The notes: generated from the letters alone by a model not told the origin. A DNA stretch of 64,000 nt from Candidatus Amesbacteria bacterium (GCA_027371535.1 DAHXMV010000001.1:96879-160878), one strand, 5' to 3'; positions 1-54,674 are shown, counted from the stretch's first letter. Translations and numbers: made by a program.

Positions 1-333
1 GAAATTATTCCCGCTGATACTGCCGACCCGCTGATTATTCCGGTATTTGTGAAGCAACTCCTGGGCAAAATAAAAGAAACTGGGGTCCGCCAAAACATCA
101 TCTTCAAGAATAATTCCCATTTTTTCATTGGTAAAAAACCAGTCCATGGCAGCAACAGGACCGAATTTACAGCCCAGATTCCGGTCCTGGAATTTCGTTT
201 TGACTACGCACTGCCAGTCTACCAAACCGATTATCCGCTGAACCTCTTTGACTAAGGTCTGTTCTTTATCGTTCCGGGGGCCGTCTACAGCAAAATACAA
301 TGCCCGGGGTTTAACTTTTTTAATACTTGCCAT
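1..333 (-). CDS. Partial CDS: N-terminal 111 aa of a glycosyltransferase-like protein (GT-A-type 'ILEDD' DxD-like motif). The C-terminus lies beyond the window edge.
   Basis: Manual translation of the minus strand from ATG (rc of 331-333) is open to position 1. It reads MASIKKVKPRALYFAVDGPRNDKEQTLVKEVQRIIGLVDWQCVVKTKFQDRNLGCKFGPVAAMDWFFTNEKMGIILEDDVLADPSFFYFAQELL... The plus-strand ORF 49-255 in the track overlaps it and is likely a shadow ORF. Confidence 0.5.
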   Translation of the reverse strand, partial: MASIKKVKPRALYFAVDGPRNDKEQTLVKEVQRIIGLVDWQCVVKTKFQDRNLGCKFGPVAAMDWFFTNEKMGIILEDDVLADPSFFYFAQELLHKYRNNQRVGSISGNNF

Positions 334-358
334 GACCCGGGCGGTGAGGTCAGGCCGG

Positions 359-1285
359 TTAAAACCAATTAATAATACCGGCGTATTTAGTTGTTTTGGC
401 ATAGTATTTCAAACTTAATATTCCGACTAAGATTATAACCGATAACATGACTTCATATACCCAGATCAGCCCTAACAAATAGACGGTGAGAAAATAACTA
501 AGATTATTAATATATGGGTGAATAACAAAAATTAGCATTGACTCTTTTCCGAACTGCTGAAATATTTTTAGCTTTTCAGGTAAATACCTAATAAAGCCAA
601 CAAGGGTGTTGATGACTAATAGGCTATATATAACTCCATATCCACTTATTACTTTTAATGCGATGTCTGTTTGCGGTATTGGAAGCAAAAACAAAGCTGC
701 AAGACAAAAAACTTTATATCTGCCCGCCAACAGCCAACCAAGAGATAGCCAGAACAAGCCCAGAAAAGCTTTATCAATTCCGAACGGCAATAACCAAGAA
801 CGGTTTGAAGCAAATAATAGAATTAATAAACTAACTAATGATATCAAGTATTTATTCCGGATAACTTTTAGCAAAATACGGTAAACAACTTTGGACCAAA
901 ACAGTGCAGGTAAAAACCATAAAACAAAACCATAATGGTGTAGATGGGAAAAATCCATCCACCAAAATATACCTATTATTTCCTGCCGGAAATTCAGTTT
1001 CCCGTTTATAAACAGGAAACCCGGAAACAACCGGTGTTTAAGGTATTCAAAAAACAAACCAATTAAAGAAAAGACTATAAAGGGGATAATCAGCCTGAAG
1101 AAATCCTTCTTTGTGGATTGTTTTAATGACGCTTCACTTTTCAGCAGCAAACCGGATACAAAGAAAAATAAGGGGATATGCCAGGCGTAGATAAAACCGG
1201 ATAACGGAGAAGCCATATGGCCAATGACAACCGCAATGATTGCCAGTCCTTTCAGGTTATCTATCCAAACGATTTTATTTTTCAT
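359..1285 (-). CDS. Acyltransferase family 3 (OatA/WecH-like) integral membrane O-acyltransferase
   Basis: 308 aa with about 10 predicted TM helices. The N-terminus 'IVWIDNLKGLAIIAVVIGHM...WHIPLFFFVSGLL' is typical of the Acyltransf_3 family. The region is low in GC. Confidence 0.65.
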   Translation of the reverse strand: MKNKIVWIDNLKGLAIIAVVIGHMASPLSGFIYAWHIPLFFFVSGLLLKSEASLKQSTKKDFFRLIIPFIVFSLIGLFFEYLKHRLFPGFLFINGKLNFRQEIIGIFWWMDFSHLHHYGFVLWFLPALFWSKVVYRILLKVIRNKYLISLVSLLILLFASNRSWLLPFGIDKAFLGLFWLSLGWLLAGRYKVFCLAALFLLPIPQTDIALKVISGYGVIYSLLVINTLVGFIRYLPEKLKIFQQFGKESMLIFVIHPYINNLSYFLTVYLLGLIWVYEVMLSVIILVGILSLKYYAKTTKYAGIINWF

Positions 1286-2037
1286 CCTATGAAGATTTTT
1301 CCGGTGAAATATTTCATCCTGGATAAGAAATCGATGATGTTTATCAGCATGGCCGGAGCTATATGGTTTTTCAGCCTTATCTTCTTGTATTCGTCATAAA
1401 TTTGTAATGTCTTATCTTTGCCGACCCCGCCTTCTCTCCATGCTGCGACAATTATGTCTTTTAAGACTACCGCCGGAAATATTTTATATGATCTCAGAAG
1501 TAAATCGTAATCCATGGCAAATTTACATTTAATATCAAATAAACCGTATTTATAAAAGTATCTTTTATTCATAAAAAGGGCTTGGTGCGGAAGGCCCATC
1601 TTGTATAAAAGTTGCCATTTATGAAAATTTATACCTGATGTATATAGGACCTGATCCCCTTTTTCAGCAATCCGGTTTATTCGGCCGCAGACTAAGATAT
1701 CTATTTCCGGATTAATACCCTGCATCATTTTTTGCAGTATATCTTTGCTCCAAAAGAAATCCCCTGCCCCCATAAAATACAAATAGTCCCCCTTAGCCGC
1801 TTTTACCCCTTTGTTAAACGCGTCGGAAATGCCTTTATCGGGTTCACTTACCCAGTAGTCTATGTATTTTTGATATTTCCTTATTATTTCTTTCGTATTA
1901 TCTTTTGATCCGCCGTCGATCACCAATAACTCTTTCTTTAGGTAATCCTGACTTATAAAACTAATAATTGTATTTTCTAGATCCGATCCATGATTAAGAC
2001 TGGGAGTTATAACAGATATAACAGGTTTATCTTTCAT
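1282..2037 (-). CDS. GT2 family glycosyltransferase (GT-A fold)
   Basis: 'ISVITPSLNHGSDLENTIISFISQDY...LLVIDGGSKDNT' followed by a DxD-like 'GAGD'. Start chosen at the internal Met (rc ATG at 2035-2037) to avoid a 41-nt overlap with the upstream gene. The ORF-track start at 2085 is an alternative. Confidence 0.75.
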   Translation of the reverse strand: MKDKPVISVITPSLNHGSDLENTIISFISQDYLKKELLVIDGGSKDNTKEIIRKYQKYIDYWVSEPDKGISDAFNKGVKAAKGDYLYFMGAGDFFWSKDILQKMMQGINPEIDILVCGRINRIAEKGDQVLYTSGINFHKWQLLYKMGLPHQALFMNKRYFYKYGLFDIKCKFAMDYDLLLRSYKIFPAVVLKDIIVAAWREGGVGKDKTLQIYDEYKKIRLKNHIAPAMLINIIDFLSRMKYFTGKIFIG

Positions 2038-2044
2038 AAATTCT

Positions 2045-3154
2045 TTAAGATTTATTATAATTACGAAGTACATCCCTATATACAATCGATGTTTGATATG
2101 CGGTTTTATCCCAAGAATATTTTTTTATTCTGATGTTACCTTTACTGACAAGGTCTTTACGAAGTTTGCTGTTTTCTATCACCTTCTGGATAGAATTTCG
2201 AATAGAGGTTTCATTTTCAGGCCTAAAATAGATAGCTGCGTCTCCCGCAATTTCAGGAAAACTACTATTATGGCTGATTACAACAGGGCATTTATTTTCA
2301 AATGCTTCCAATATCGGTATCCCGAACCCTTCATACCTTGATGGATACACAAAAGCCAAAGCTCTGCTATAACATTCCGACAAATCACGGTCATTAGTTA
2401 TAGATTGGTAAATCACTCTGTCGCTAATCCCCAGTTTGGAAAACATGTCAATTTCGTCAGAATTAAATATATTACCCCCCGCCGATACCAAATAAAGATT
2501 ATTCTTAATCAGAATATCAGATACCGCTTTAACAAAACCCATAAAATTTTTGTATATCCAGCGGAACCCAACATATAGCAGATATTTTTCAGGTAATCTT
2601 AATTTAACTTGTTTATCCCAGGGTAAAAGAGAATTGGCAAGAGGTATAACCGAAATGCTATTTCCATCTATCCCGTATATTTTCTGAATATCAGACTTGG
2701 TGCTATTAGAAATAGCAATAATATGGTCTGCTTTGGAAAGTATATATTTTTTGTTTTTTATAATTTTATTTTTAAGTGATGGGTACTCTTTTGAAAACAG
2801 TTCATGAATCATGTCATAGACTGTTATTATCAAAGGTTTTTTATGAGTTAGGGGTAAGAATATCTTTTCATAATAAGTTGGGTGATAAAGATCATAATCA
2901 ATAAAGTTCAGTTTAATTATGCCTAAAGCAGTATTTAATATTCTGTAAATATAGTTATGGTATTTATTACGGTAAATCCAGCTGTCAGTAATACCATAAC
3001 TTAAATCTTTAAGGTATTGGTTATGGCTTAATGTTAAATCGGATACAGGTAAAATATCGTATTTCGGTAATCTAGCCATTATCTCAGCGTAGTATCTTGA
3101 TATACCACCATAATCCTGTAAACTGAATATTTGTGAGTCAAATAGTACTTTCAT
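2045..3154 (-). CDS. GT4 family glycosyltransferase (GT-B fold, retaining)
   Basis: 369 aa. The C-terminal 'EGFGIPILEAFENKCPVVISHNSSFPEIAGDAAIYF' matches the E-x7-E signature region of the GT1/GT4 family. Confidence 0.8.
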   Translation of the reverse strand: MKVLFDSQIFSLQDYGGISRYYAEIMARLPKYDILPVSDLTLSHNQYLKDLSYGITDSWIYRNKYHNYIYRILNTALGIIKLNFIDYDLYHPTYYEKIFLPLTHKKPLIITVYDMIHELFSKEYPSLKNKIIKNKKYILSKADHIIAISNSTKSDIQKIYGIDGNSISVIPLANSLLPWDKQVKLRLPEKYLLYVGFRWIYKNFMGFVKAVSDILIKNNLYLVSAGGNIFNSDEIDMFSKLGISDRVIYQSITNDRDLSECYSRALAFVYPSRYEGFGIPILEAFENKCPVVISHNSSFPEIAGDAAIYFRPENETSIRNSIQKVIENSKLRKDLVSKGNIRIKKYSWDKTAYQTSIVYRDVLRNYNKS

Positions 3155-3933
3155 TTTTTCTGTGAATAACTTAGATGATCCGAAAAAGTTTTACTCTTAT
3201 AAAATATTGGTAATATTATGCTTAATACCATCCATAATTTGGAAAATATAATATTTATAGAAGAAGAGATATATATTTTAGAAAAAATATGATAAAAACT
3301 GCCGTTTGTTGTTAAGTGGTATCCAAGCTTGTCGGCGATAATTTGCAGGCTTTTTCTGGTATAAAACGATATATGCTGGCCACCTTCCGGTACAAAATAC
3401 CACCAGTCCTTCCCCGGATCGCCGTCATGAAGCGTTGTACTAAATATCAGCATATCTGGACTGTATATATTCAAAATATCACCAATTTCTTTTAGGGGAT
3501 TGTCTAAATGTTCAAACAACTCAAAACTGCATACCACATCGTAATGTTTTTCTTTTGACTCAAATCCTCTTACAAATATATTTTTGGCATACCTGTCCTG
3601 CCAATAACAATCAAGACCTATGTCTCTTAATAATCTCGTCATAACCCCATAGCCTCCAGCATAATCAAGAACCTGGGAATCCTTTTTACCAGTTAGTAAT
3701 AATAAGATTGCCGTCATCTTAGATAAGGTGATATTCCTGGACAGTAATCCCGTATCAGCTGATATTATCGCCTGCTTATATGCTTTTTTTAACCAATATC
3801 TGGGTTTTTGAGCCTCTATAAAGCTACAATTTGTACATCTATAATAATTTATGTTATATATTTTCAAGACTGTTTGAGTTACATATTCTTCCACCAGATT
3901 TCCACATACTGAGCATTTCATGACTATATTCAT
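3151..3933 (-). CDS. Class I SAM-dependent methyltransferase with an N-terminal Cys4 zinc-ribbon
   Basis: CSVCGN...CTNCSF zinc ribbon. Methyltransferase motif I-like 'VLDYAGGYGVMTRLL' and an acidic residue after beta2 'LDCYWQD'. Confidence 0.6.
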   Translation of the reverse strand: MNIVMKCSVCGNLVEEYVTQTVLKIYNINYYRCTNCSFIEAQKPRYWLKKAYKQAIISADTGLLSRNITLSKMTAILLLLTGKKDSQVLDYAGGYGVMTRLLRDIGLDCYWQDRYAKNIFVRGFESKEKHYDVVCSFELFEHLDNPLKEIGDILNIYSPDMLIFSTTLHDGDPGKDWWYFVPEGGQHISFYTRKSLQIIADKLGYHLTTNGSFYHIFSKIYISSSINIIFSKLWMVLSIILPIFYKSKTFSDHLSYSQKK

Positions 3934-4057
3934 AAATTATATCGTAGTCTCAATATATTAGATAAATTTACTTGTCTTCGGGTTAGATATACTTAGAAGG
4001 TATCATATCTAAAGATAGAATTATAATTGGCTTATATACAAAAAAGTGCATTTCAAG

Positions 4058-5359
4058 CTATGTATTATTGACTAATTCGTACTTTTTGATAACAAAGTAT
4101 TGGATTAAATAGTCAAATAAATTTGATATAAATACCATCATAAAAAAATAATATAAACCTGTATTTCTAAAGAACACCATATAATTTATATATAAAACTA
4201 GCGTCAAAAGGGGTTTATATAAGTACATTTTAACTACTTTTTGATATATTCTTGCTGAAGATAAAGCAATTTGTCCGTATAAACTAGCTACCAGTTGAAT
4301 ACATGAAATTATGGATACTAGAAATATATACCAGTAATTTATGGCATAAGACTTACCCACTAAAAACATGATAAAGAAAGTGATAAGAAATACACCGATA
4401 AAAAGAGGCGATAGTGATAATAGTATAATTTTATCGATTTTCTTTTTTGTTGAAATATAATCCCGATATTCAGTTAGATTTGGCAGTAAAACATTATTTA
4501 CGGCCACCAATACCTGAGAGATTACTGTTGTTGAAGCTATCAGATATACACTATAGATGCCCAGTAAACGAAAACCAAGATATTTTGCCATGAAGATCCT
4601 ATCCATATTAGAAATCAGCACACCTATAATTATAGCTAAATAGCAATTTATAGAATATCGAAGGCTTTTTTTGAATAAAGGCATATTCCATCGACCCAAA
4701 TATGGATATATGAATTTTAAAAAAATAATTGACATCGAGAAATAAATAATAATCGAGCCATAAATATAATATTGGTATTGATGTAAACTACAAAATACTA
4801 TTCCAGCTACCAATATAAAGATGCCTACACCCTCTATTAGCTTGGAAAGAGACTGAACTTTGAAATTTCCGAAAGCTTTAATTACAGATTCAAATAGATA
4901 TTTAAATGCCAACACCGATGAATAGACAAGGGAGTAGAAAATTATTTGGAATATATTACCGAAGTGACTTTTGATATAACCTGAAATTGATAAAAATATC
5001 ACCCATACTAATAGAGTAAAACCTGTAATCAAATATACAGAGTTTGAGATTTCCGCTTTACGGAAATTTTTGTCATGGTTCCCTGGAACATATTTTATAA
5101 CTACAGAATCACGGCTTAGCAATAAGACCATACTCAAAATCCCAGAAATAGAAATAAATAAACTATATTTACCAAATTGTTCAGGACCTAGCTGCCGGCC
5201 CAATAATATATATGAAATAAACAGTAAGATTGAGCTGATTCCGATACCTATGAATGACCATGTAATGTTATTAATAAACGAAGTAAATCTGTTTCCGGGA
5301 GTATGGCCATATATAAATATATAAGCCGAGTCTATTTTCCTTTTCAGATAAGAATACAT
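4058..5359 (-). CDS. Wzx-like oligosaccharide flippase / polysaccharide biosynthesis protein (MOP superfamily)
   Basis: 433 aa with about 12 TM segments throughout. Architecture and neighbourhood fit O-unit flippases. Low-GC island. Confidence 0.6.
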   Translation of the reverse strand: MYSYLKRKIDSAYIFIYGHTPGNRFTSFINNITWSFIGIGISSILLFISYILLGRQLGPEQFGKYSLFISISGILSMVLLLSRDSVVIKYVPGNHDKNFRKAEISNSVYLITGFTLLVWVIFLSISGYIKSHFGNIFQIIFYSLVYSSVLAFKYLFESVIKAFGNFKVQSLSKLIEGVGIFILVAGIVFCSLHQYQYYIYGSIIIYFSMSIIFLKFIYPYLGRWNMPLFKKSLRYSINCYLAIIIGVLISNMDRIFMAKYLGFRLLGIYSVYLIASTTVISQVLVAVNNVLLPNLTEYRDYISTKKKIDKIILLSLSPLFIGVFLITFFIMFLVGKSYAINYWYIFLVSIISCIQLVASLYGQIALSSARIYQKVVKMYLYKPLLTLVLYINYMVFFRNTGLYYFFMMVFISNLFDYLIQYFVIKKYELVNNT

Positions 5360-5381
5360 TTCAACAAACTTCTAAGAAAAA

Positions 5382-5726
5382 TTATTTTTTATGAGTTGTT
5401 TTTTTAGCGTTCTCGGAAACCAGTTTGCCGATTTGGCGGTAGAGATCACGGACAGCCATGTGGTCGGAAAAGGCCAGGTATGTCAGGATCATAAAGGCCA
5501 GGATCATTAGCAGGTCTAAAGCCCGGACAATACTGAGGGTGGTTAAAAGCGGAGACAGGATATGCGGAAACAGGGCAAAAATGATAAAAACCACCCAACT
5601 AAAGCACCAAAATATATATTCTTTAATCCCCAAATGTCCGCGCTTATAATGCACGCGCACCAAATAGAGCATGAAGATGGCAAAAAATATGGATATGACC
5701 TGAATGCCTAGAAAAGTTTCCACCAT
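5382..5726 (-). CDS. Small 3-4 TM membrane protein, DUF2304-like partner of polyprenyl-phosphate glycosyltransferases
   Basis: 114 aa, 'FFAIFMLYLVRVHYKRGHLGIKEYIFWCFSWVVFIIFALFP...'. It sits immediately downstream of a Dpm1-like GT2, the usual DUF2304 arrangement, and overlaps it by 19 nt. Confidence 0.45.
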   Translation of the reverse strand: MVETFLGIQVISIFFAIFMLYLVRVHYKRGHLGIKEYIFWCFSWVVFIIFALFPHILSPLLTTLSIVRALDLLMILAFMILTYLAFSDHMAVRDLYRQIGKLVSENAKKTTHKK

Positions 5727-6370
5727 AGACTGTTGGCCAATATTTTAACACTATCGGCAGGGGAAATACCCTTGTATTTATTGATATAAATGGTGTCAAT
5801 GGGAATTTCGACCCACTTCAGTTTATGCTGATGGCGGCTGAAGCGGGCGATCATTTCAGTTTCGACTCCGTAACGGTCAGACTGCCATTTAGATAAAAGA
5901 TAAGCCTTTCTGGTTAAAGCCCTGTAGCCGGATAAGATGTCCCTGATCCGCACCCCGAAGACCAAACGGCAATAAATTCTTGCCAGGAAATTCCCCAGAT
6001 GCCGGTCATGCGGATCGCCGGCAGAATAAGTCCGGGAACCGAAAACCAGATCGGTTCCCTGCTGCAGATGTTTTATAAAAACCGGTATTTCCTTGGGATC
6101 ATGCTGCAAATCAGCATCCATGTAGATCACCGCATCCGCACCCGAGGCAAAGGCATAATCAGCCCCCGTCTTCATGGCCGCCCCCTTACCCAAATTCAGC
6201 TGGTGACGTAACAGGGTGACCGGATATCGGCGGGGAATTTCCAGCGGAGCTTCGGAGCCGTCATCCACGATCACCACCCGGGATAAAGGGAAGACGGAAC
6301 GCAGTTTGGACAGCAACATCGGCAGCCGCGGTTGTTCGTTAAAAGCCGGAATAACAATAAATATTTTCAT
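5708..6370 (-). CDS. GT2 polyprenyl-phosphate sugar synthase (Dpm1/GtrB/ArnC-like)
   Basis: 'FIVIPAFNEQPRL...VVIVDDGSEAP', 'NLGKGAAMKTG', 'DADLQHDP', 'DILSGYRAL'. This motif order is characteristic of dolichyl/undecaprenyl-phosphate glycosyltransferases. Confidence 0.75.
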   Translation of the reverse strand: MKIFIVIPAFNEQPRLPMLLSKLRSVFPLSRVVIVDDGSEAPLEIPRRYPVTLLRHQLNLGKGAAMKTGADYAFASGADAVIYMDADLQHDPKEIPVFIKHLQQGTDLVFGSRTYSAGDPHDRHLGNFLARIYCRLVFGVRIRDILSGYRALTRKAYLLSKWQSDRYGVETEMIARFSRHQHKLKWVEIPIDTIYINKYKGISPADSVKILANSLWWKLF

Positions 6371-7641
6371 TTGTCGGATAATTTAACCGCTGCTAAACGC
6401 CGGTAAACAACAACCGCGGAAAGGGTCAGGAGCAATTGACCGGCTAAATTGGAAAGGGCAGAGCCGATTATCCCCAATGGGGGTATCAGAAGCAAACCGG
6501 AGACGATGGTAACCACGCCGGAGCCCAGGCTGGCCCAGAAAAAGAATTTGGGGCGGTTGTAAAAATAGAGCAAACTATCCCTGACAGGAGCGCCCAACAT
6601 GAATACCAACATGGAAACCAGCACAATTAAATACGGAACCAGGCCGGAAGTATACTGCCGGCCGGAGATCAGAAATAAGACATAACCCCCCGGAATCATG
6701 ACCCCTGCGGCCAGCAGCGCGATGCCCCCGGAAAGCAGGGTAGCTTTTAAGACATAGCGGCGGTTATGGGAGTGGTCGCTGAAACTGGCAAATTTGGGTG
6801 CCGTCACAGCGCCAATGGCATTCATCACCTGGGGCAGATAACTGACTGCCTGAATACCCAAGCCATAGACTCCGACTGCAGAAAGGCTGGCCAGACCGGA
6901 GGTCAGATAAGTATCCAGCCGGGAACTCACCGATGAGGCAACGGTAAAAGCAGTCACCCATTTGTTGAAGTGGAAGATATCGGACAATCTGGATAACGAC
7001 CCTGAAACAGTAAAAACCTCCCTTTCCACTTTAAAGAGACCGAGGATAAAACCAAAGAGGGGTATTACGGCCCACAGGGCGGTAGATATATAAGCATTCA
7101 ACCAGCCAATCCGCCAAAAGAAGATGAGGAAAATGAAACGGGCGATATTGGTCCCGGCCAGGACACTTCCCCACCAAAAAAATTTTTCATAAGCCTGCAT
7201 GTAGTAAAGGGCGAAATTAAAAAGCTGCTGACAAAGCAGGCCGATACCGATGAGGGGTATAAGAGGGGTCATTTCGGGTTGATGAAAGAGGACTACTGAC
7301 AACCAGTGAGCTGAAAAAATACAGAAGAAGGTTATCACAAAACCAACCGTAACTTTAATTTTTAGGGCCAAATTGGAAACCTGCAGCCTGGCGGTACGGT
7401 CATTTCGGTAATGGGAAATAAATTTAATCATGCCCCGGTCCGTGCCGAGCTCCAAAATGGTCGACAAAATAACAATCGTAGTCGTAGCCAAAGTAAACAG
7501 TCCATATTCGCTGCTGCCGATGTTCCTGGCCAGAAGCAGGTAAAATGTCACGGCGAAAACTCCGCTGATGACGGTGGCAACCAGAGTCACGGCCGTCTGC
7601 CTGATAGTATGGGTGTGGATTAGATGGCTGATACGGATCAT
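6367..7641 (-). CDS. MOP-superfamily flippase / polysaccharide biosynthesis membrane protein
   Basis: 424 aa and about 12-14 TM. 4-nt overlaps with both neighbours. Confidence 0.55.
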   Translation of the reverse strand: MIRISHLIHTHTIRQTAVTLVATVISGVFAVTFYLLLARNIGSSEYGLFTLATTTIVILSTILELGTDRGMIKFISHYRNDRTARLQVSNLALKIKVTVGFVITFFCIFSAHWLSVVLFHQPEMTPLIPLIGIGLLCQQLFNFALYYMQAYEKFFWWGSVLAGTNIARFIFLIFFWRIGWLNAYISTALWAVIPLFGFILGLFKVEREVFTVSGSLSRLSDIFHFNKWVTAFTVASSVSSRLDTYLTSGLASLSAVGVYGLGIQAVSYLPQVMNAIGAVTAPKFASFSDHSHNRRYVLKATLLSGGIALLAAGVMIPGGYVLFLISGRQYTSGLVPYLIVLVSMLVFMLGAPVRDSLLYFYNRPKFFFWASLGSGVVTIVSGLLLIPPLGIIGSALSNLAGQLLLTLSAVVVYRRLAAVKLSDK

Positions 7642-9205: not shown

Positions 9206-10339
9206 TCAGGCTACCCAATAACCAAACGCAAACAGGGAAAGATAAATAAAGAAAGCCATACCGGACAGACTGAATAACAGATACCTGAGACGGGGAAATC
9301 CGGCCGCAAAATCCCCCAATACGATAAACAACGGAAAGCACACCAGCACATAACGGGGCAGGGAAACAAAATTACCGGTAAGGGTGGGTAAAAATAAGGC
9401 AAAAAGACTGAAAACAGAATATGAAAGCCGCTGTCTGAACAGAGAAAAAACAGTCAGAGTGATGAAAACGATACCGACGATGAATTCCAACCAGATGGTT
9501 AAATAAAGAAAATCATTTGTCGATACGGTCGTAATCATTTTCAGATAACGCCAGATAACCTGATAGGGTAAAACTATACGCAGACTGCGGGATTGATTAA
9601 AAGCCGTCTGAACGTGATAAAAAGCCAGGGCGTCACCGGTGGTTTTATAAAGATAAAACATGTATATTCCCAAAGACAGCGGGATTAAAAGCAAAGGCAG
9701 CAACCGGGTCAAAATCCGGCCGAAAGTAAGGTTTTGCATACCCGATTGCCAGAAATATTCGATAATCAAAGCCGGGAAGAGAAACACGCCGACCAATCTG
9801 GTATAGGCAGCCAGGGCCCCGAATATGCCTGCCAGCAGCCATTTCCCCCGTCTGGCCGTGTAGAAGGACAGCACGATCCATAACAAACAAAGCCCTTCCG
9901 TATACACCGAGGAGAAAAAAAAGCTGGTGGGAAAAAATAACAACAGCAGTACCGTCCATCGTGAGACCTGCCGGGGATAATCCATCTCTATTAATCTGAC
10001 CAGAAAAATCAGGGCCAGGAAAAAAGAAAAAGAGGAAATAACCACGCCGATTAAAACCGGTGATCTGACATATGTGAAGACCCAACTGATAAGCTTGGGG
10101 TACAAAGGGAAAAATGCCTGCTGTCCGAAATTGTATCCATGAGTGGCGATCAATATAAAATGCACGCCGTCAAAATTTGAGCGGAAGTTTAAGAGCGGGT
10201 CCCGGTGATATTCTGTTACCCCCCCGCCCAAATAGGTGCCGCTTTCCCTGACCGGTAAAAACCCGGAAGCAATGATGACTACGGCGAGGATCAGGACCTG
10301 CCAGATAAGATAATATTTCAGAATAGCTTTAAATGTCAT
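9206..10339 (-). CDS. PIG-V/Gpi18-like (GT76-like) integral membrane mannosyltransferase candidate
   Basis: 377 aa polytopic protein. 'DGVHFILIATHGYNFGQQAFFPLYP' resembles the conserved 'D..HF..IA..GY...AFFP' loop of the PIG-V mannosyltransferase family. Confidence 0.45.
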   Translation of the reverse strand: MTFKAILKYYLIWQVLILAVVIIASGFLPVRESGTYLGGGVTEYHRDPLLNFRSNFDGVHFILIATHGYNFGQQAFFPLYPKLISWVFTYVRSPVLIGVVISSFSFFLALIFLVRLIEMDYPRQVSRWTVLLLLFFPTSFFFSSVYTEGLCLLWIVLSFYTARRGKWLLAGIFGALAAYTRLVGVFLFPALIIEYFWQSGMQNLTFGRILTRLLPLLLIPLSLGIYMFYLYKTTGDALAFYHVQTAFNQSRSLRIVLPYQVIWRYLKMITTVSTNDFLYLTIWLEFIVGIVFITLTVFSLFRQRLSYSVFSLFALFLPTLTGNFVSLPRYVLVCFPLFIVLGDFAAGFPRLRYLLFSLSGMAFFIYLSLFAFGYWVA

Positions 10340-11400
10340 ATGGACTTGTTTAATACCGAACGATAGACGGACAACATTTCCCCGGCAACCCGGTCCCAGG
10401 AAAATAACAGGGCTTGGGCCGGTCCTGCAGCGGACATTCCGGAACGCAAAGTCTTATCAAAAAAAACGGACTTTAATTTGGCGGTGAAATCCATTTGATT
10501 ATAAGGGTCAAAGTAAACAGCACTAAGTCCGGCAATTTCTGGCAGTGATGAAGCCCGGCTGCAAATAACCGGGGTACCGCACGATAAAGCCTCCAATACC
10601 GGAAATCCAAAACCTTCCCGGAATGAAGGCTGACAGTAAACAGTAGCCAATTGATAAACGGAGACCAGTTCCGCATCCGGGACAAAACCCAATCTGATAA
10701 ATTGGGATTTTTGATTTACGATGTACGATTTAAGATTTTCCAGGTGCCTGAGTTCGGGGTGACGGGAATCCAGGGTTTCAATCTCCAAAGCGGATTTGCC
10801 GGCCAGAACCAAAGGTATTTTCAATTCCTGACAGGCCCGGAATAAACCCGGCAGATTTTTATTCCAGTTAATGTCGCCGACATAAAGCACAAATTCGGGC
10901 GGTAAATGATATTTGCTCCTGACAATTTTCAATTCGGCCGGATTTTTTTTACGGGTATATACCGGGTCGGCAGCCAAATATACCAATTTGATTTTGGCAT
11001 CGGGTATCTGCAGGTATCTTTTTATACCTTTTACAGAGGCGTAGGAATCCGTTACCACTACAGAAGCTGATCTTAACGCGATTTTTTGCCATAAAAAATT
11101 CAGGCTACCACGCAGCCCGGGGCGGTAAATATCGGGAAATTCCAGGGGGATGACATCGTGGACGGTGACGACCGCGGGGAGTGATTTGAAAAAGGGCAAA
11201 CCGGGTTTAAACAGATCAAAATAGGGATAGTGGACCAAATCCAGCCCGGAAAAATTTCCCGGACCGACCTCCAGAATTTGGAAATCACTTTGTAACGCAG
11301 CCCGCGTTAAAGCGGCTACCAGATTGCGGGTATAAAACCCCACCCCGCGCACCCCATGAGCCTGGCTTAAGTTCCGGGTGACGATGCCGACCTTATTCAT
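10336..11400 (-). CDS. GT4 family glycosyltransferase
   Basis: 'REGFGFPVLEALSCGTPVICSRASSLPEIAG' GT-B signature. Start placed at the Met of 'MNKVGIVTRNL...' (rc ATG at 11398-11400). This gives an 8-nt overlap with the upstream GT2 stop instead of a 120-nt overlap. Confidence 0.8.
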   Translation of the reverse strand: MNKVGIVTRNLSQAHGVRGVGFYTRNLVAALTRAALQSDFQILEVGPGNFSGLDLVHYPYFDLFKPGLPFFKSLPAVVTVHDVIPLEFPDIYRPGLRGSLNFLWQKIALRSASVVVTDSYASVKGIKRYLQIPDAKIKLVYLAADPVYTRKKNPAELKIVRSKYHLPPEFVLYVGDINWNKNLPGLFRACQELKIPLVLAGKSALEIETLDSRHPELRHLENLKSYIVNQKSQFIRLGFVPDAELVSVYQLATVYCQPSFREGFGFPVLEALSCGTPVICSRASSLPEIAGLSAVYFDPYNQMDFTAKLKSVFFDKTLRSGMSAAGPAQALLFSWDRVAGEMLSVYRSVLNKSI

Positions 11401-12178
11401 CCGGGTACCTGGAGATCTGCCAGTATTTAATGTAGGAAATACCCCAGCGTAAACCGGAAAACAGGGCAAATACAAAACCCGGAAAGCCGTCCGCGTAGCC
11501 CCTGTGCCTGACATAAATACTGAAAAATTCGCTGAAGGGTTTGATAAACAGATAGTCTACCGCCTGCCATGAGCCGACAGGAATATTTTCAGTCCGTAAC
11601 TGATCGGCAATCAGCGAGGTGTAACGCTGATAACGGAGTAAATAATTTTCAAAGTCGGGCGTATTATAATGCAGCAGGTTATTTTTCAGATACTCCGTGG
11701 GGCCATTTACCTCTGCCTGTTCATGAACGTCTTTGGCCGGCAGCCGGCCCAAGCCCCGTTTATAAAGCCTAAGGGTAAGATCCGGGTATTGTCCGCCTTT
11801 GGTTAAAGGTGAACCCAAAAAATAATTTAACCGGGGAATCCAGTAACCGGCTAATTGCCCAGGTTGGCTGATAACCCCGGCAATTTCCTCAGCCAGCGGA
11901 GGTGAAACCACCTCATCGGCATCCAATTGCAATATCCAGTCCCCGCCGGCCGCATCTATCGCCATATTTTTATTGATATGGAAGTTCGGTTTATTGTCAG
12001 CGGAGTAGACCTGAGCGTGGTATTGGCGGGCAATATCGACAGTTTTATCAGTTGATTTACCGTCCACGACAATAATTTCGTCCGCCAGGCGGCTGACAGA
12101 TTCCAGACAGCGGGCCAGATTTCTTTCCTCATTGTATGTGGCTAAAACAACCGAGAGGAGAATTTTTTTATCAGCCAT
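11393..12178 (-). CDS. GT2 family glycosyltransferase (WaaE/KdtX-like small GT2)
   Basis: 'ILLSVVLATYNEERNLARCLESV...IIVVDGKSTDKT...QLDADEV'. Start at 'MADKK' (rc ATG at 12176-12178). Confidence 0.8.
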   Translation of the reverse strand: MADKKILLSVVLATYNEERNLARCLESVSRLADEIIVVDGKSTDKTVDIARQYHAQVYSADNKPNFHINKNMAIDAAGGDWILQLDADEVVSPPLAEEIAGVISQPGQLAGYWIPRLNYFLGSPLTKGGQYPDLTLRLYKRGLGRLPAKDVHEQAEVNGPTEYLKNNLLHYNTPDFENYLLRYQRYTSLIADQLRTENIPVGSWQAVDYLFIKPFSEFFSIYVRHRGYADGFPGFVFALFSGLRWGISYIKYWQISRYPDE

Positions 12179-12182
12179 AAAT

Positions 12183-13802
12183 TCAGTTGGAAATAATTTT
12201 AAAAGCCGGACTGCCACCCGGAAAATAAATAGTTTTGACGATATTGACACCGACAGACGGGATATCCTCCGGGGCCGCGACGATCAGGGTACCATGAATA
12301 TCCCGTACCAGGTTCCAGTTTGTGTCCGTGAACCGGTATTTGTCAAATTGCTTCACCGTAGAGAAATTATACCGGTCACGCAAAGTTAATTCATGATGAC
12401 CCTGGAATTTTTGGGGCGGATATTTTAAATAAAATAAAAACAAAATATAGGGCTGGTCATATTTATCGGTCACTAAAATCCGGTGATACCTGTCCTGGTT
12501 TCGAGCCACATAGGCTACCATTTCCTTAAACCCGTATTCCCAGGCTGAAGGATAAGTTTGGGGATAATGAACATAATATTCATGAAGGTAACGGGTAAAC
12601 TGATACGTATAAATCCCCAGCACCAAAATACATATTACAGACAATTTCCAATCTGAAAACAAACCCAAAAAATAAGACAGACCGGCGGCGGTAATAATGG
12701 TCAGGGGAATAACCATATTCTGGGCTCTTAAAGCGTGGGGGACCTGGAAAGTCATGGCGGCAGCCACGGGAGCCACCAGAAGCCATAACCAGACAATTTT
12801 TAATTTCGAATTTTTAATTTTTAATAAATAAAATAACCCGAAGAGCAAAAAAACAAAATCTGTCCAGTAGAGAAGACCCGTTTCCGGCACCCGGTTGCGC
12901 TGGATGGCATCGCCGCCGATAAACAGGAAATTTCCGTCAAAATGGGAAAGGTAGTTTTTAATAAACTGAATGGTATAGAAGACAGGCCGGTTGAAAAGCA
13001 TTTTTTCAAGCACCGCCCCCGGTCCGTGATATTGGCCGCGCAGCTCATTAACCAGATTCAGCGGACCCATATCGGCCAACAGACCGACACCGGAAAGACG
13101 CGAGGCGGTATCTTTATTAAAAACCGAAAAAAGGAGCGGCAGAGAAATCAAAAACATCAGAGGAAGCGCTGCCATACAGGTTTTTGCATGGGAAAAAACA
13201 TATTTATAACTGATAATTAACAGGCCGAATAACAACAACGGGGAGATGACTCTGGCAGACTGATATGTGTACATCGACAAAATCAAATTTAAAAGAAAGA
13301 AGGTAAAATTAATAAAAGTGGGTGTTTTTCGCCACTTGAGGAAAAAAATTACTCCCAGAAGTATCAGAGCAGTAGATACATTGACTTCCCAGGCACCCCG
13401 GGAAAAGTGAAGATGCCAGGGGGAGATAGCCAGGAGTACGGAGCTGACGGCAGAGAGTTTGTAGTTATAAGTTATCAGTAAGACAAAAACAAAAATTAAA
13501 AATACCGAAAGAACACCAAAGAGAGCTGACGGAAGACGGACAGCAAATTCATTCAAGCCCAGGAATTTAACGACCGGAACCAAAAGGTAAGAATAAAGAG
13601 CCGGTTTATAGTCACCGAAAGATTCCAGGTTAACCGGCAGCAGATGACCATCTTCGTCCTTACCGGTATTTAAAAGCGAATAGGCGTTATAACCCAGAGC
13701 CGCCTCATCGGCGTTTAAGCCTGAAGGGAAATCGGAAACGGCATAAAATCGCAGAACAGCTGCAAAAATTATTATCAGGATTATTAACAGATATTTTTTC
13801 AT
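12183..13802 (-). CDS. GT39/PMT-like GT-C membrane glycosyltransferase (family A paralog 1)
   Basis: 539 aa. TM1 then a loop reading 'NADEAALGYNAYSLLNTGKDEDGHLLP...FGDYKPALYSYL', comparable to the PMT 'DE' loop-1 motif. At least 10 further TMs. Confidence 0.7.
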   Translation of the reverse strand: MKKYLLIILIIIFAAVLRFYAVSDFPSGLNADEAALGYNAYSLLNTGKDEDGHLLPVNLESFGDYKPALYSYLLVPVVKFLGLNEFAVRLPSALFGVLSVFLIFVFVLLITYNYKLSAVSSVLLAISPWHLHFSRGAWEVNVSTALILLGVIFFLKWRKTPTFINFTFFLLNLILSMYTYQSARVISPLLLFGLLIISYKYVFSHAKTCMAALPLMFLISLPLLFSVFNKDTASRLSGVGLLADMGPLNLVNELRGQYHGPGAVLEKMLFNRPVFYTIQFIKNYLSHFDGNFLFIGGDAIQRNRVPETGLLYWTDFVFLLFGLFYLLKIKNSKLKIVWLWLLVAPVAAAMTFQVPHALRAQNMVIPLTIITAAGLSYFLGLFSDWKLSVICILVLGIYTYQFTRYLHEYYVHYPQTYPSAWEYGFKEMVAYVARNQDRYHRILVTDKYDQPYILFLFYLKYPPQKFQGHHELTLRDRYNFSTVKQFDKYRFTDTNWNLVRDIHGTLIVAAPEDIPSVGVNIVKTIYFPGGSPAFKIISN

Positions 13803-15436
13803 TTGAGAGCGACTGCTGTTAAAGCCGGCTGGCCGTCAGGATATTTAATGTCTCCCAGGTGCAATAGTCCGGCAAACCGGGTATCTTTGTCCGGCAGCTC
13901 ATACTGATCACCGATAAAAATCGTGTCTTTCTGGCCTCTCAGAGACGGCCAGAAAACAGGCATAAACCTGAATTGGGAAAAACCTGAAACCTGTCCCACG
14001 TCGCCATTGGGTCCGGCAATCAACCTGGCCTGTTTCTGATACCCGGCCGGGTTGATTTTGAGATAAAAAAGGAAAAAGATATAAGGCTGACCCAGCTTGT
14101 CAGTCATAACCACATGGTGATATTCAGAGAGATATGGTTTAATTAATTGAATCACGGGTTTGTAAGCCGAAACCCATTCCCGACTTGAGTAATAAGAGTT
14201 GTGAAGGTAATACATATCCAGATAAAGGACCAGAAATAATCCGACTAACAGTACATATGCCCCGGCCAAAAATTTGCGGTTTAGCAGACGGGAAATTCCA
14301 ATTCCGATAAAGATAGTGAGCGGAATTAGCATCGGTAAAGACCTGACTCCAGACACCAAATCCCGGGAAAAGGCAGACGGAACAGGAGCCAGGAACAACC
14401 AGGAAAGCAAAAAAACCGTGCTGCGGTTTAATTTCCTCAAAATATAAATTATTCCCATAAGCAAAGTGACCAGTTCAGGATAATAAAAATAACCCTGATT
14501 ATATTCAGCCAGACGCAAACTGGTCCAATCACCCTGAATAAATAAGAACCGGGGTGAAAAATGATTTAAATATCTCTGATAGACCCCTATCAGCTGATTA
14601 AGCAGTTCCGAATGAAAAAGAAAGTATGTCCAGTCTTTTGAGGCAGTGTGATCCTGGGCCAAAAGCCGGCTGACGTAATCGCCCCCCCGGGTGTAACTGA
14701 AAACACTGAAGACTTTTAACCGGCCGGACTGGGAAGCAAATCCCCAAATTATAGGTAAAAGGAATAAAGCTGAAACAAGCAAAGGGGTGATGATGCGGGT
14801 CAGTTTCAAATTACGGCGAAATATTAAAAGCAGGCTGAAAACAATTAATGGGGTAAATAATTTAGCACCCTGATAAGACCAGAAAGTCAGACCGAAAAAC
14901 AGAAAAGCCAATAGATAATGCCATCTGGATGCTGATTTATGTGCACGGATAAACAGGACTGCACCTAAAACGGTTAAAAACAGCGACAGGTTGGCCTCCC
15001 AGGCCCCCCGGGAAAAATGGATAGCCCAGGGATTTAAAGAAAGAACCAGGGTAGAAAGCAGCGCAGAAGAGGGATTTTCAGGATATAAATACCGCACCAG
15101 AAGAAAAATCAAAACGATCATTATCGTGCCGAAAAGAGCCGAAGGCAGCCGGGTGGAAAATTCGTTTAAATCCAAAAATTTTACCGAAGGGACGGTAAAA
15201 TAAATATATAAACCCGGTTTATAATCCCCAAACGATTTAAAGACAACCGGAGCCAACTGCCCGTATTCGTCCCTGCCCGTTCTTAACAGCGAATAGGCAT
15301 TGTAGCCGAGAGCCGCTTCATCCCAGGTAAATCCGGCAGGACGGATATTTAAGCCCACAACGCGCAATATCAGGCCTATAAAGATAATCAGTCCCAGTAA
15401 AACAAAATTCTTTTTCATATCAAATCTGTTTAACAA
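13799..15436 (-). CDS. GT39/PMT-like GT-C glycosyltransferase (family A paralog 2)
   Basis: 545 aa. 'WDEAALGYNAYSLLRTGRDEYGQLAPV...GDYKPGLYIYFTVP'. Tandem to paralog 1, about 60% identical across the conserved loop. Confidence 0.7.
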   Translation of the reverse strand: MLNRFDMKKNFVLLGLIIFIGLILRVVGLNIRPAGFTWDEAALGYNAYSLLRTGRDEYGQLAPVVFKSFGDYKPGLYIYFTVPSVKFLDLNEFSTRLPSALFGTIMIVLIFLLVRYLYPENPSSALLSTLVLSLNPWAIHFSRGAWEANLSLFLTVLGAVLFIRAHKSASRWHYLLAFLFFGLTFWSYQGAKLFTPLIVFSLLLIFRRNLKLTRIITPLLVSALFLLPIIWGFASQSGRLKVFSVFSYTRGGDYVSRLLAQDHTASKDWTYFLFHSELLNQLIGVYQRYLNHFSPRFLFIQGDWTSLRLAEYNQGYFYYPELVTLLMGIIYILRKLNRSTVFLLSWLFLAPVPSAFSRDLVSGVRSLPMLIPLTIFIGIGISRLLNRKFLAGAYVLLVGLFLVLYLDMYYLHNSYYSSREWVSAYKPVIQLIKPYLSEYHHVVMTDKLGQPYIFFLFYLKINPAGYQKQARLIAGPNGDVGQVSGFSQFRFMPVFWPSLRGQKDTIFIGDQYELPDKDTRFAGLLHLGDIKYPDGQPALTAVALK

Positions 15437-18634: not shown

Positions 18635-18636
18635 AG

Positions 18637-43855: not shown

Positions 43856-43863
43856 AATCCAAA

Positions 43864-48281: not shown

Positions 48282-48338
48282 GAAGTAATTATAACAAGCA
48301 ATCCTGCCGAAGGATTGATTTATATACCGGTTGGGGTT

Positions 48339-48344
48339 TATGAT
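48339..48344 (+). promoter_or_regulatory. Candidate -10 (TATGAT) with a TTGATT -35 (48315-48320, 18-nt spacer) upstream of the dehydrogenase gene
   Basis: 'aggaTTGATTtatataccggttggggttTATGATcctttaatacgATG'. Confidence 0.25.
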
Positions 48345-48355
48345 CCTTTAATACG

Positions 48356-53918: not shown

Positions 53919-53920
53919 AA

Positions 53921-54673: not shown

Positions 54674-54674
54674 T

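Follow-up and report, generated by a model that had tools for sequence, protein, structure and literature searches.

An AT-rich gene cassette in a variable slot of a surface-glycan locus in a Microgenomates-type bacterium

Near the start of the window, by which we mean the whole 64-kb stretch of DNA that was analysed, lie five neighbouring genes of low GC content, encoding a membrane-bound acyltransferase, glycosyltransferases of families GT2 and GT4, a methyltransferase and a Wzx-type flippase. [quoted passage not shown] The five genes are probably the window-side half of a variable cassette of about 10 kb, which fills a fixed slot of a conserved surface-glycan locus and owes its low GC to import from related Patescibacteria. 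This cassette looks imported and swappable, and is of a kind long known from O-antigen and capsule loci, real but ordinary. It reveals no new mechanism or gene family; rather, it provides a clear case in an uncultured CPR bacterium of a glycan locus that keeps its flanks and swaps an AT-rich central cassette, as in cultured bacteria. The features are as follows, in window coordinates.

1-402, minus strand: 3' part of p302, a 302-aa gene running off the window start, inside the low-GC cassette; soluble product
359-1285, minus strand: membrane-bound acyltransferase (Acyl_transf_3, PF01757), 308 aa; 63.7 bits against a cut-off of 31
1282-2037, minus strand: GT2 glycosyltransferase (Glycos_transf_2, PF00535); 83.7 bits against a cut-off of 23.3
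2045-3154, minus strand: GT4 glycosyltransferase (Glycos_transf_1, PF00534, and Glyco_transf_4, PF13439), 369 aa; 94.9 and 41.3 bits
3151-3933, minus strand: SAM-dependent methyltransferase (Methyltransf_23, PF13489), 260 aa; 80.8 bits against a cut-off of 27
3934-4057, no strand: intergenic gap of 124 nt, the sole sizeable gap in the block and its most AT-rich stretch
4058-5359, minus strand: Wzx-type (MOP-family) flippase (Polysacc_synt, PF01943), 433 aa; 65.3 bits against a cut-off of 28.2
5360-5404, no strand: right junction of the cassette, comprising the 22-nt spacer from the Wzx start codon to the DUF2304 stop codon, together with the GC change point
5382-5726, minus strand: DUF2304 small membrane protein (PF10066), conserved right flank, 114 aa; 66.8 bits; GC3 0.53
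5708-6370, minus strand: PpgS-like GT2 (GT2f; PF00535), conserved right flank, 220 aa; 82.1 bits
6367-7641, minus strand: resident Wzx-type flippase (PF01943), 424 aa; 63.8 bits; GC 0.494, GC3 0.581; internal composition control

Extent and base composition of the low-GC block

A low-GC region at about 340-5400, reported by the first-pass annotation, is real. Positions 341-5404 have a GC of 0.28-0.39, compared with about 0.44-0.45 in the whole window and 0.50 just downstream. The six 1-kb bins of positions 1-6000 have GC values of 0.383, 0.370, 0.320, 0.325, 0.277 and 0.392, and the next kilobase has 0.528; the 58 one-kb bins outside the first six span 0.358-0.530, with a window mean of 0.443. 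Likelihood segmentation of the window together with 8 kb of upstream contig sets the right change point at 5404 (log-likelihood gain 105); the DUF2304 stop codon, at 5382, is 22 nt away. A second, internal break falls at 2489, with a GC of 0.374 to its left and 0.299 to its right. The flanks on either side of the block have a GC of 0.499 and 0.485.

The five genes make up the right half of a larger low-GC cassette of 10.1 kb (window -4740 to 5404), which extends 4.7 kb beyond the window start and supersedes the 5-kb unit originally described. The abrupt GC shift described at the same time is sharp at the right edge, whereas on the left a single gene interrupts the low GC, which resumes past the window start. 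Surroundings of about 50% GC are found only in the adjoining 3.5 kb, the remainder of the window being at about 0.45.

Individually, the island genes have a GC of 0.29-0.35 and a GC3 (third-codon-position GC) of 0.28-0.38, with a GC1 of 0.32-0.40 and a GC2 of 0.27-0.33. Relative to the 44 other window genes (GC 0.455, SD 0.024; GC3 0.50, SD 0.042), their z scores range from -4.4 to -6.8 in GC and from -2.7 to -5.2 in GC3, on a background that represents 64 kb of one glycan-rich region and not the whole genome. AT-coded residues (F, Y, M, I, N, K) are over-represented, their share being 2.5 to 5.1 SD above that of the same 44 genes. For the island, the dinucleotide distance (Karlin delta*, x1000) reaches 91, whereas host 5-kb windows have 33 +/- 10 with a maximum of 60. 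Sliding-window GC, codon and dinucleotide checks alike show a deviation from the 64-kb background, in agreement with the first-pass annotation. Protein type fails to explain this composition, because neighbours of the same families are compositionally normal: GC3 is 0.58 in the resident Wzx (6367-7641) against 0.28 in the island Wzx, 0.56 against 0.38 for GT2, and 0.50 against 0.29 for GT4. The composition of the island is foreign to the host. Elsewhere in the window, one other gene, at 32932-34443, has a similarly low GC.

Within the cassette, GC3 falls into strata of 0.28-0.32 (Wzx, methyltransferase and GT4), 0.38-0.39 (GT2 and acyltransferase), 0.39-0.43 (three upstream genes) and 0.51 (p302). 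Because of these strata, and of the host-like p302 in its middle, the cassette is a mosaic and not the product of one event, contrary to the single acquisition first proposed.

Genes of the cassette

All five genes are of the types originally named, including the zinc-ribbon methyltransferase, and their domain calls exceed the Pfam curated cut-offs. Wzx, the first gene of the cassette, has the lowest values in the window (GC 0.293, GC3 0.281), about ten hydrophobic segments and a further match to PF13440 (33.4 bits against a cut-off of 23). The gap between it and the methyltransferase gene falls within a 300-nt window (3901-4200) with a GC of 0.23; promoter-like and terminator-like matches in positions 1-6500 show no excess over shuffles. 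The methyltransferase carries an N-terminal CxxC...CxxC zinc-ribbon-like motif, both parts of which are retained in its homologue on contig L003, and one C-terminal hydrophobic segment. Its gene forms a conserved pair with that of GT4 (GC 0.321, GC3 0.289), the same adjacency recurring on L003 and L042.

The GT2 gene as called encodes 251 aa from an ATG at 2037, and the longest open reading frame 267 aa from a TTG at 2085; its GC3 is 0.38-0.39. This GT2 is a distant paralogue (32-35% identity) of the GT2 genes of relatives and does not correspond to the conserved slot GT2 described below. NCBIfam matches for GT2 and GT4 all fall far under the cut-offs and give no sugar specificity. The acyltransferase (GC 0.351, GC3 0.379; about seven hydrophobic segments) has no counterpart in the slot of 13 relatives, and presumably O-acylates the glycan. 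Its 3' end and the start of p302 overlap by 44 nt.

The full p302 gene (L002 12753-13661) has a host-like composition (GC 0.438, GC3 0.512). The protein has no match in Pfam or NCBIfam and matches the GT13 catalytic domain of POMGnT1 weakly (E=0.011); it is probably a GT-A-fold glycosyltransferase. Homologues with 41-46% identity occur alongside the methyltransferase-GT4 pair on L003 and L042, and alongside GT4 on L041.

As read from the window, the glycan pathway is incomplete, with neither an initiating phosphoglycosyltransferase nor a recognisable polymerase. No Pfam family of the former type (WecA/MraY-type or WbaP-type) occurs among the 40 window and L002 proteins scanned, and the proteins scanned have no Pfam or NCBIfam match to a Wzy polymerase, chain-length regulator or ligase. 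Just outside the window lies the gene of a 727-aa orphan membrane protein with about 14 hydrophobic segments, which has no Pfam or NCBIfam family, no Protein Data Bank match and no homologue in any fetched locus. It is a candidate for the missing Wzy-type function. This protein and the very divergent Wzx are the only parts lacking known close relatives.

A conserved slot with variable contents

The right flank of the slot consists of the DUF2304 gene, with 68-73% identity to those of L044 and L045, the closest relatives, and the overlapping gene for GT2f. The top NCBIfam match of this flank GT2 is PpgS (NF058614) at 75.9 bits, far under the equivalog cut-off of 370, a family-level resemblance only; the enzyme may act as a polyprenyl-phosphate sugar synthase. 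Its homologues range from 70% identity downward, the named ones belonging to Woesebacteria, Amesbacteria and Patescibacteria. PIG-V-like and PMT_2-like GT-C genes occur in the same minus-strand run, and the cassette is surrounded by 23 large polytopic membrane proteins, 12 of which form one PMT_2-like family. The resident Wzx is 41% identical to its syntenic counterpart on L044. The other border of the slot is formed by the two conserved genes f234 and f400, located past the window start on the contig.

GT2f, DUF2304 and the slot GT2 share a strand in 13 relatives. The three genes are contiguous in 11, with one intervening gene in the Amesbacteria locus L015, where GC is uniform and no island is present, and two in L044. 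In this genome, 9.2 kb separates DUF2304 from the slot GT2, which is inverted, and seven of the nine genes in between have no counterpart in any relative's slot. The presence/absence comparison agrees with the first-pass annotation in that all 13 relatives lack the five island genes at the slot; these relatives are distant (flank proteins 40-70% identical), and their lack of the genes therefore cannot date the gain.

L044, the closest relative with a long contig, keeps both flanks of the slot (DUF2304 68%, f234 30% and f400 40% identity) and carries a 4.9-kb cassette of its own, with a different gene set and a GC of 0.29-0.33 and GC3 of 0.22-0.29, compared with a core of 0.47-0.53. A layout of GT2f-DUF2304-Wzx-...-GT4-inverted slot GT2 is shared by L041. 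Since the resident slot GT2 is displaced and inverted here, and a different low-GC cassette occupies the same place in L044, what had been described as insertion into a resident GT-C operon is better seen as the filling of a conserved variable slot. The collections searched contain no close relative of this genome, and exchange at the slot is seen here across distant relatives only, not among strains.

Homologues and probable source

The 'recent' acquisition of the first-pass annotation is not supported by the homologues. The top non-self matches are 57% identical for GT4 (P0002, on a contig with a GC of 0.31), 56% for the methyltransferase (L003) and, among 5.8 billion proteins, 31% for Wzx, and no recent donor was identified. 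Flank genes have top matches of the same order (50-70%), the named ones all from Patescibacteria. Contigs with a GC of 0.30-0.33 and a Microgenomates-type gene order carry the top homologues of GT4 and the methyltransferase. L041 and L046 bear GT2f-DUF2304-slot GT2 (GT2 being inverted on L041), and L003 bears a PMT_2 gene. Homologues on low-GC contigs have a GC3 of 0.22-0.29, and most of the Microgenomates loci fetched have a GC of 0.33-0.39. Named GT4 matches with 42-45% identity belong to Shapirobacteria, Thermodesulfovibrio, Pedobacter and Lentisphaerota. The likely source, from these comparisons, is low-GC members of the same radiation and not a distant lineage. In the genome of L042/L046, island genes are 49-55% and flank genes 53-58% identical to those here, values that alone would also fit old common ancestry.

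Alternative explanations

A single recent 5-kb insertion, by which an unrelated lineage's complete O-unit module entered an otherwise intact GT-C operon, would suit the sharp change point at 5404, the very low GC3 of Wzx, methyltransferase and GT4, the absence of the five genes from the relatives' slot, and the spread of the named GT4 matches over several phyla. It is nevertheless improbable and is already contradicted on size and unity, given a 10.1-kb block that reaches beyond the window, is broken internally at 2489, shows a gradation in GC3 and encloses a host-like gene. The nearest homologues are at most 57% identical, the best of them in Microgenomates-type contexts, and the module lacks an initiating transferase or polymerase. 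Vertical inheritance, with AT-richness arising from relaxed selection, low expression or selection for AT-rich codons in variable glycan genes, is unlikely but carries some weight. On the low-GC contig L046, too, GC3 is lower in variable-region genes (0.24-0.30) than in the conserved triad (0.38-0.44), so AT-richness may partly be common to genes of this type. The slot is AT-rich in the two higher-GC genomes, L044 and the present one, and island and flank identities to L042/L046 are alike. Against this, amino-acid content is shifted as strongly as synonymous sites, the dinucleotide signature differs too, same-family paralogues in the locus are normal, seven of the nine genes are unique to this genome's slot, and p302 is host-like under the same presumed regime.

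The joining of a low-GC fragment of another organism into the contig, during assembly or binning, is very improbable. This is a metagenome assembly, and all records holding the sequence may stem from one sample; however, ENA, NCBI and Logan all record the same gene order, in contigs reaching 320 kb. The block is flanked by host-like sequence on both sides and encloses a host-like gene, the junctions are tightly packed (the p302/acyltransferase overlap and the right-edge spacer), and L044, a separate assembly, has the same kind of island in the same slot. Equally remote is carriage by a phage, plasmid or integrative element, in favour of which only the atypical composition speaks. No integrase or transposase is found among the annotated genes, in keeping with the first-pass annotation, nor are there tRNA genes or flanking direct or inverted repeats beyond chance-length matches. 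Plasmid and phage collections contain no similar DNA, and viral contigs no close relatives of GT4 or Wzx.

A proposed pathway and its wider use

Under the preferred reading, an imported cassette in a variable slot, low GC would stem from genes imported, in at least two or three steps, out of the gene pool of related Patescibacteria, most of which is low in GC, with Wzx, methyltransferase and GT4 as the apparently least ameliorated part (least shifted toward host composition). Recombination in the conserved flanks, and not a mobile element, is the likely route. Against this reading, p302 belongs to the same recurring module elsewhere, yet has host composition here.

For the biochemistry we infer the following order. 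By the logic of the PpgS/Rv3632/GT-C pathway (PMC9671496), the PpgS-like GT2 and DUF2304 would supply the numerous GT-C enzymes encoded here with a polyprenyl-phosphate sugar. In the cytoplasm, GT4, GT2 and probably p302 would extend a lipid-linked oligosaccharide, which the methyltransferase could O-methylate. Wzx would then move the oligosaccharide across the membrane, where the membrane acyltransferase may acylate the glycan on the outside. Genes elsewhere presumably encode the initiating enzyme and the final transfer step.

More tentatively, and with somewhat less than even confidence, the interval between the PpgS-like GT2/DUF2304 pair and f234/f400 may be a serotype-like switching site of Microgenomates and related Patescibacteria, at which whole glycan-modification cassettes are swapped by flank recombination across genus- or family-level distances. 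Such a site would explain why two higher-GC lineages each carry a different cassette with the composition of low-GC relatives. These organisms are believed to live attached to host cells, and the site, if it exists, could control their host or phage recognition. As a concrete, bounded interval (DUF2304 to f234/f400), the slot offers a handle for surveys of glycan diversity and gene flow in Patescibacteria, and for searching metagenomes for cassette switching at strain level.

Comparison with known systems

Rv3632 is, we presume, a member of the DUF2304 family. The right flank resembles the PpgS/Rv3632/Rv3779 arabinogalactan-modification system of mycobacteria and corynebacteria in pairing a small soluble GT2 with a small membrane protein beside GT-C enzymes. 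In that system PpgS, aided by Rv3632, loads sugar onto polyprenyl phosphate for a GT-C transferase (PMC9671496). Unlike PpgS, the flank GT2 is not an equivalog by its NCBIfam score, and the likeness concerns the flank and not the low-GC genes.

Hypervariability of surface-glycan genes, and its interpretation as phage evasion, is described in PMC9426551. The cassette is similar to the 'glycotype' islands of free-living bacterioplankton, in which variable glycosyltransferase and modification genes occupy a conserved position and differ between relatives; a role in phage or host recognition is conjecture here. With classical genomic islands it shares deviant composition and absence at the site in distant relatives, but not the mobility hallmarks.

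O-antigen and capsule loci typically have a low-GC variable centre, conserved flanks and a fixed slot, without mobility genes. In contrast to those of Enterobacteria and other bacteria, the present locus belongs to a member of the Patescibacteria, its flanks are the PpgS-like GT2/DUF2304 pair and unannotated membrane proteins, and the cassette lies among large polytopic membrane proteins. Of the features of a Wzx/Wzy-type cluster, the MOP-family flippase and cytoplasmic glycosyltransferases are present, whereas Wzy, Wzz, a ligase and the initiating phosphoglycosyltransferase were not recognised in the window and proteins scanned. Like O-antigen and capsule clusters, the cassette combines Wzx and cytoplasmic GT2 and GT4 enzymes with methyl- and acyl-modifying enzymes, has a GC well under that of its host, graded within the cassette and unaccompanied by mobility genes, and sits in a fixed slot with conserved flanks whose contents differ between related genomes.

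Composition and gene content of the island

All sizeable open reading frames (ORFs) of the island region lie on the minus strand. The five gene identities proposed in the first-pass annotation are each matched by Pfam above the curated cut-offs, as follows.

359-1285, minus strand, acyltransferase (Acyl_transf_3)
1282-2085, minus strand, GT2 (Glycos_transf_2)
2045-3154, minus strand, GT4 (Glycos_transf_1 / Glyco_transf_4)
3151-3933, minus strand, methyltransferase (Methyltransf_23)
4058-5359, minus strand, Wzx-type protein (Polysacc_synt)

The methyltransferase carries an N-terminal CxxC...CxxC arrangement, and both motifs are kept in a 56%-identical homologue. Promoter-like and terminator-like matches do not exceed the frequency obtained after shuffling the sequence.

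In one-kb bins, the GC content of positions 1-6000 is 0.383, 0.370, 0.320, 0.325, 0.277, and 0.392, followed by 0.528 in the next bin; the other 58 bins range from 0.358 to 0.530, and the mean of the window is 0.443. A 300-nt profile confirms the deviation from the window background, falling from 0.44 to 0.35 near 300-450, staying at 0.23-0.40 up to about 5400, and then returning to 0.45-0.56. Measured against the 44 other genes of the window, a background drawn from one glycan-rich 64-kb region, the island genes stand apart in GC (0.29-0.35 vs 0.455, SD 0.024; z -4.4 to -6.8), in GC3 (0.28-0.38 vs 0.50, SD 0.042; z -2.7 to -5.2), and in their share of F, Y, M, I, N, and K residues (0.37-0.45 vs 0.295; z +2.5 to +5.1). 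GC1 and GC2 are likewise low, and the bias is therefore present in proteins and synonymous sites alike. Protein type does not explain the low GC, because genes of the same families elsewhere in the locus have normal composition: GC3 is 0.58 in the resident Wzx (6367-7641) vs 0.28 in that of the island, 0.56 vs 0.38 for GT2 (resident 5708-6370), and 0.50 vs 0.29 for GT4 (resident 10336-11514). The Karlin dinucleotide distance to the host (delta*, x1000) is 91 for the island, against 33 +/- 10 and a maximum of 60 in 22 host windows of 5 kb. The low-GC island reported initially is thus borne out by GC bins, gene z values, same-family controls, and dinucleotide distance.

A second, isolated low-GC gene lies at 32932-34443 on the minus strand (503 aa; GC 0.364, GC3 0.319; surroundings about 0.45-0.49), adjoining a YfhO-like gene of 764 aa. 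Its product has about eight hydrophobic segments and is without match in Pfam and NCBIfam searches, while the N-terminal part shows 31-43% identity to the PMT_2-like paralogues encoded at 56141-59100. The gene could represent a further GT-C paralogue that was imported or replaced.

Extent and mosaic structure of the cassette

The island had been described as about 5 kb long. GC is indeed low over that stretch, but segmentation shows it to be only the right-hand part, about half, of a longer block of mosaic make-up. When the window and the source contig beyond its start (locus L002, which reaches 8 kb past that point) are joined into 72 kb and segmented by likelihood, a single low-GC block of 10.1 kb emerges from -4740 to 5404, here called the cassette. 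Inside this block GC changes at 2489 (0.374 to the left, 0.299 to the right), and the flanks are at 0.485 and 0.499.

L002 13636-17758, out to 4.7 kb left of the window start, opposite strand, left half of the cassette: 727-aa orphan, GT4, and slot GT2 ortholog

The gene following the acyltransferase in minus-strand reading encodes a 302-aa protein (p302), overlaps it by 44 nt, and is host-like in composition (GC 0.438, GC3 0.512). Pfam and NCBIfam give no match for its product, and a Protein Data Bank sequence search gives a weak GT13-like one (E = 0.011). Beyond p302, on the opposite strand, follow the 727-aa membrane protein (GC3 0.40), the GT4 (0.39), and the GT2 (0.43), past which GC3 is back at 0.52-0.56. 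The 727-aa orphan, with about 14 hydrophobic segments, has no family or structure match in Pfam, NCBIfam, and Protein Data Bank sequence searches, and a homologue is absent from every fetched locus; it is only a candidate for a polymerase or ligase.

The cassette is stratified in GC3. The island Wzx, methyltransferase, and GT4 genes have values of 0.28-0.32, the other low-GC genes 0.38-0.43, and p302 0.51; cassette homologues on low-GC contigs have 0.22-0.29. Such a gradient is consistent with several imports that differ in age, and it gives no date. An age estimate based on amelioration, which would need substitution rates for this lineage, was rejected.

A variable slot between conserved genes

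The right flank of the cassette consists of a DUF2304 gene (5382-5726) and a PpgS-like GT2 (flank GT2, 5708-6370). Scanning a genome collection with the flank GT2 retrieved 35 loci, the best in MAGs of Candidatus Amesbacteria, Woesebacteria, Microgenomates, Shapirobacteria, and ‘Patescibacteria group’ (39-51% identity). No close relative of this genome was found in that scan, where the top match is 51% identical, and exact-protein look-ups with one flank gene and one island gene returned the source contig alone, in three records with identical neighbours. A protein search gives a smooth series from 70% identity down, its named members being Woesebacteria, Amesbacteria, and Patescibacteria.

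Eleven MAGs that match the flank GT2 (L006, L007, L009, L013, L017, L019, L020, L024-L026, and L030) are titled ‘uncultured Gammaproteobacteria’ or ‘uncultured Pseudomonadales’. Most of them have a Microgenomates-type DUF2304 gene and a GT-C array alongside, at a GC of 0.33-0.42 (L017, 0.50), and the titles look like wrong or placeholder taxonomy.

Gene order is kept across loci. It begins with several GT-C genes, a GT2, a GT4, and a PIG-V-like GT-C, and ends, in some loci after an oxidoreductase and a Wzx, with the PpgS-like GT2, the DUF2304 gene, and a further GT2 (slot GT2). In a family-clustering comparison these last three genes lie together on one strand in 13 of 13 loci and are contiguous in 11, with one gene in between in L015 and two in L044. 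The slot GT2 ortholog of this genome, 54-55% identical to the L006 and L015 copies, is inverted and lies 9.2 kb from the DUF2304 gene; of the nine genes in between, seven lack a counterpart in the slot of any relative among the 13 loci. Comparison with related genomes, suggested by the first-pass annotation, accordingly finds the island genes absent at this site, in relatives that are distant. The Amesbacteria locus L015 has a uniform GC of 0.38-0.47 and no island, and most fetched Microgenomates loci have a GC of 0.33-0.39.

The closest relative with a long contig, L044 (ENA ERZ27249449 k141_5299), shares the oxidoreductase-Wzx-GT2 order, with 61-68% identity in the flank GT2, the DUF2304 protein, and a GT-C. 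The far flank is kept as well: two conserved genes, f234 and f400 (L002 17793-19704), match L044 16923-18957 at 30% and 40% identity. Between these flanks, at 12000-16900, L044 has its own low-GC island of 4.9 kb in the same slot, with a GC per kb of 0.33, 0.29, 0.29, 0.32, and 0.30 (surroundings 0.41-0.55, core 0.47-0.53) and gene GC3 values of 0.22-0.29. Its gene set (a GT2, two methyltransferases, and two unannotated proteins) is unlike that described here, and several of these genes belong to families also present in the slots of low-GC Woesebacteria. With a different cassette between conserved flanks in L044, the site bounded by DUF2304 and f234/f400 is thus a variable slot, and what fills it in each of the two higher-GC genomes has the composition of low-GC relatives. 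The DUF2304 gene of L044 is also AT-shifted (GC3 0.35), though 68% identical to the one described here.

Source of the cassette genes

The island GT4 has 7,388 homologues at E <= 1e-10. Named matches at 42-45% identity span several phyla (Shapirobacteria, Thermodesulfovibrio, Pedobacter, and Lentisphaerota). The top matches lie on low-GC contigs with a Microgenomates-type gene order. The top non-self match (57%) lies on L003 (GC 0.31), preceded by the 56%-identical methyltransferase, and this locus also has a p302 homologue and a PMT_2 gene. One 31-kb contig (L042/L046, GC 0.33-0.34) combines the methyltransferase-GT4 pair and a p302 homologue with the flank GT2 (58%), DUF2304 (53%), and slot GT2 (55%). 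Another locus, L041 (GC 0.30), mirrors the layout with flank GT2, DUF2304, Wzx, modification genes, a p302-like domain, GT4 (52%), and an inverted slot GT2 (47%). The island Wzx has four non-self matches, all 31% identical or less, which do not indicate a donor. No closer homologues of the island genes were found in a search of 5.8 billion proteins. Since the best homologues reside on low-GC contigs with a shared frame, the likely source pool is the low-GC members of the same radiation.

Import and alternative explanations

The cassette is probably an import into the variable slot. No donor was identified, the best identities being 57%, 56%, and 31%, and the cassette is absent from relatives that are themselves distant. 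Island genes are 49-55% identical to their L042/L046 counterparts, about equal to the 53-58% of flank genes. The variable genes of L046 are also AT-richer than its conserved triad, so that a tendency shared by such genes may explain part of the GC offset; variable glycan genes being intrinsically AT-rich is nevertheless a rather improbable account of the cassette.

An assembly chimera is unlikely, as host-like sequence flanks the block on both sides and occurs inside it, and genes overlap at the junctions. The same order is found in ENA ERZ27233560 k141_910440 (153 kb), NCBI, and Logan, on contigs of up to 320 kb, and L044 carries an analogous island on an independent contig. Insertion as a mobile element is likewise unlikely. 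The initial observation that no transposase or integrase flanks the island holds: there are neither such genes nor tRNAs, repeats at the cassette ends are short, chance-length matches only, megablast of the island found no match among plasmid and phage records, and viral-contig scans with GT4 and Wzx gave none either. The cassette resembles a horizontally acquired island in composition and presence/absence, and not in mobility. Import into the slot is the preferred explanation; a serotype-like switching site of Patescibacteria, with exchange reaching across genus- or family-level distances, is a more tentative reading.

Proposed function and locus setting

In NCBIfam the flank GT2 comes closest to PpgS, but with 75.9 bits vs a cut-off of 370 it is not an equivalog. 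Its gene overlaps that of the DUF2304 protein, a family to which Rv3632 presumably belongs. In mycobacteria and corynebacteria, a GT-C transferase is supplied with a sugar that PpgS, together with the small membrane protein Rv3632, has attached to polyprenyl phosphate (PMC9671496). The window encodes 23 large polytopic membrane proteins, and a single PMT_2-like family accounts for 12 of these, in keeping with a locus organised around sugar donors that are lipid-linked.

From the gene families assigned, we infer an order of reactions in which GT4 and GT2, perhaps with p302, would extend a lipid-linked oligosaccharide that the methyltransferase may methylate. Wzx would then flip it, and the seven-segment acyltransferase could acylate it outside the membrane. 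The proposed O-unit-type module is present as far as Wzx, transferases, and modifying enzymes are concerned, but it is incomplete as read: the 40 proteins scanned include neither an initiating phosphoglycosyltransferase nor a polymerase or ligase that could be recognised. The cassette is a partial Wzx-type module and not a complete Wzx/Wzy cluster.

Almost the entire window (9206-63767) is one glycosylation region, with tandem runs at 12183-20247 and 52416-59100. Other types in this region are PTPS_related, YfhO, GT87, and PIG-V-like proteins, and GT2, GT4, and methyltransferase genes, at least nine in all, lie scattered among them. For the resident GT4 (10336-11514) and the upstream GT2 (11393-12250), the longest ORFs overlap by 122 nt; public calls give 354 aa and 261 aa with an 8-nt overlap, so that starts taken from the ORFs probably lie too far upstream. 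Picking non-overlapping ORFs of >= 90 aa leaves four stretches of 0.8-1.4 kb with no or short ORFs (22063-23310, 24976-25815, 43856-45148, and 46973-48355) in a region otherwise tightly packed.

Comparison with known systems

In O-antigen and capsule loci, conserved flanks typically enclose a variable AT-rich centre that encodes Wzx, transferases, and modifying enzymes, and mobility genes are typically absent. Hypervariable surface-glycan islands also exist in bacterioplankton (PMC9426551). The literature searched contains no description of variable glycan cassettes, or of such a slot, in Microgenomates. The cassette follows the pattern of both kinds of system, the O-antigen and capsule loci as well as the surface-glycan islands of bacterioplankton: its flanks are conserved, its AT-rich centre is variable and combines Wzx with transferases and modifying enzymes, and it has no mobility genes.
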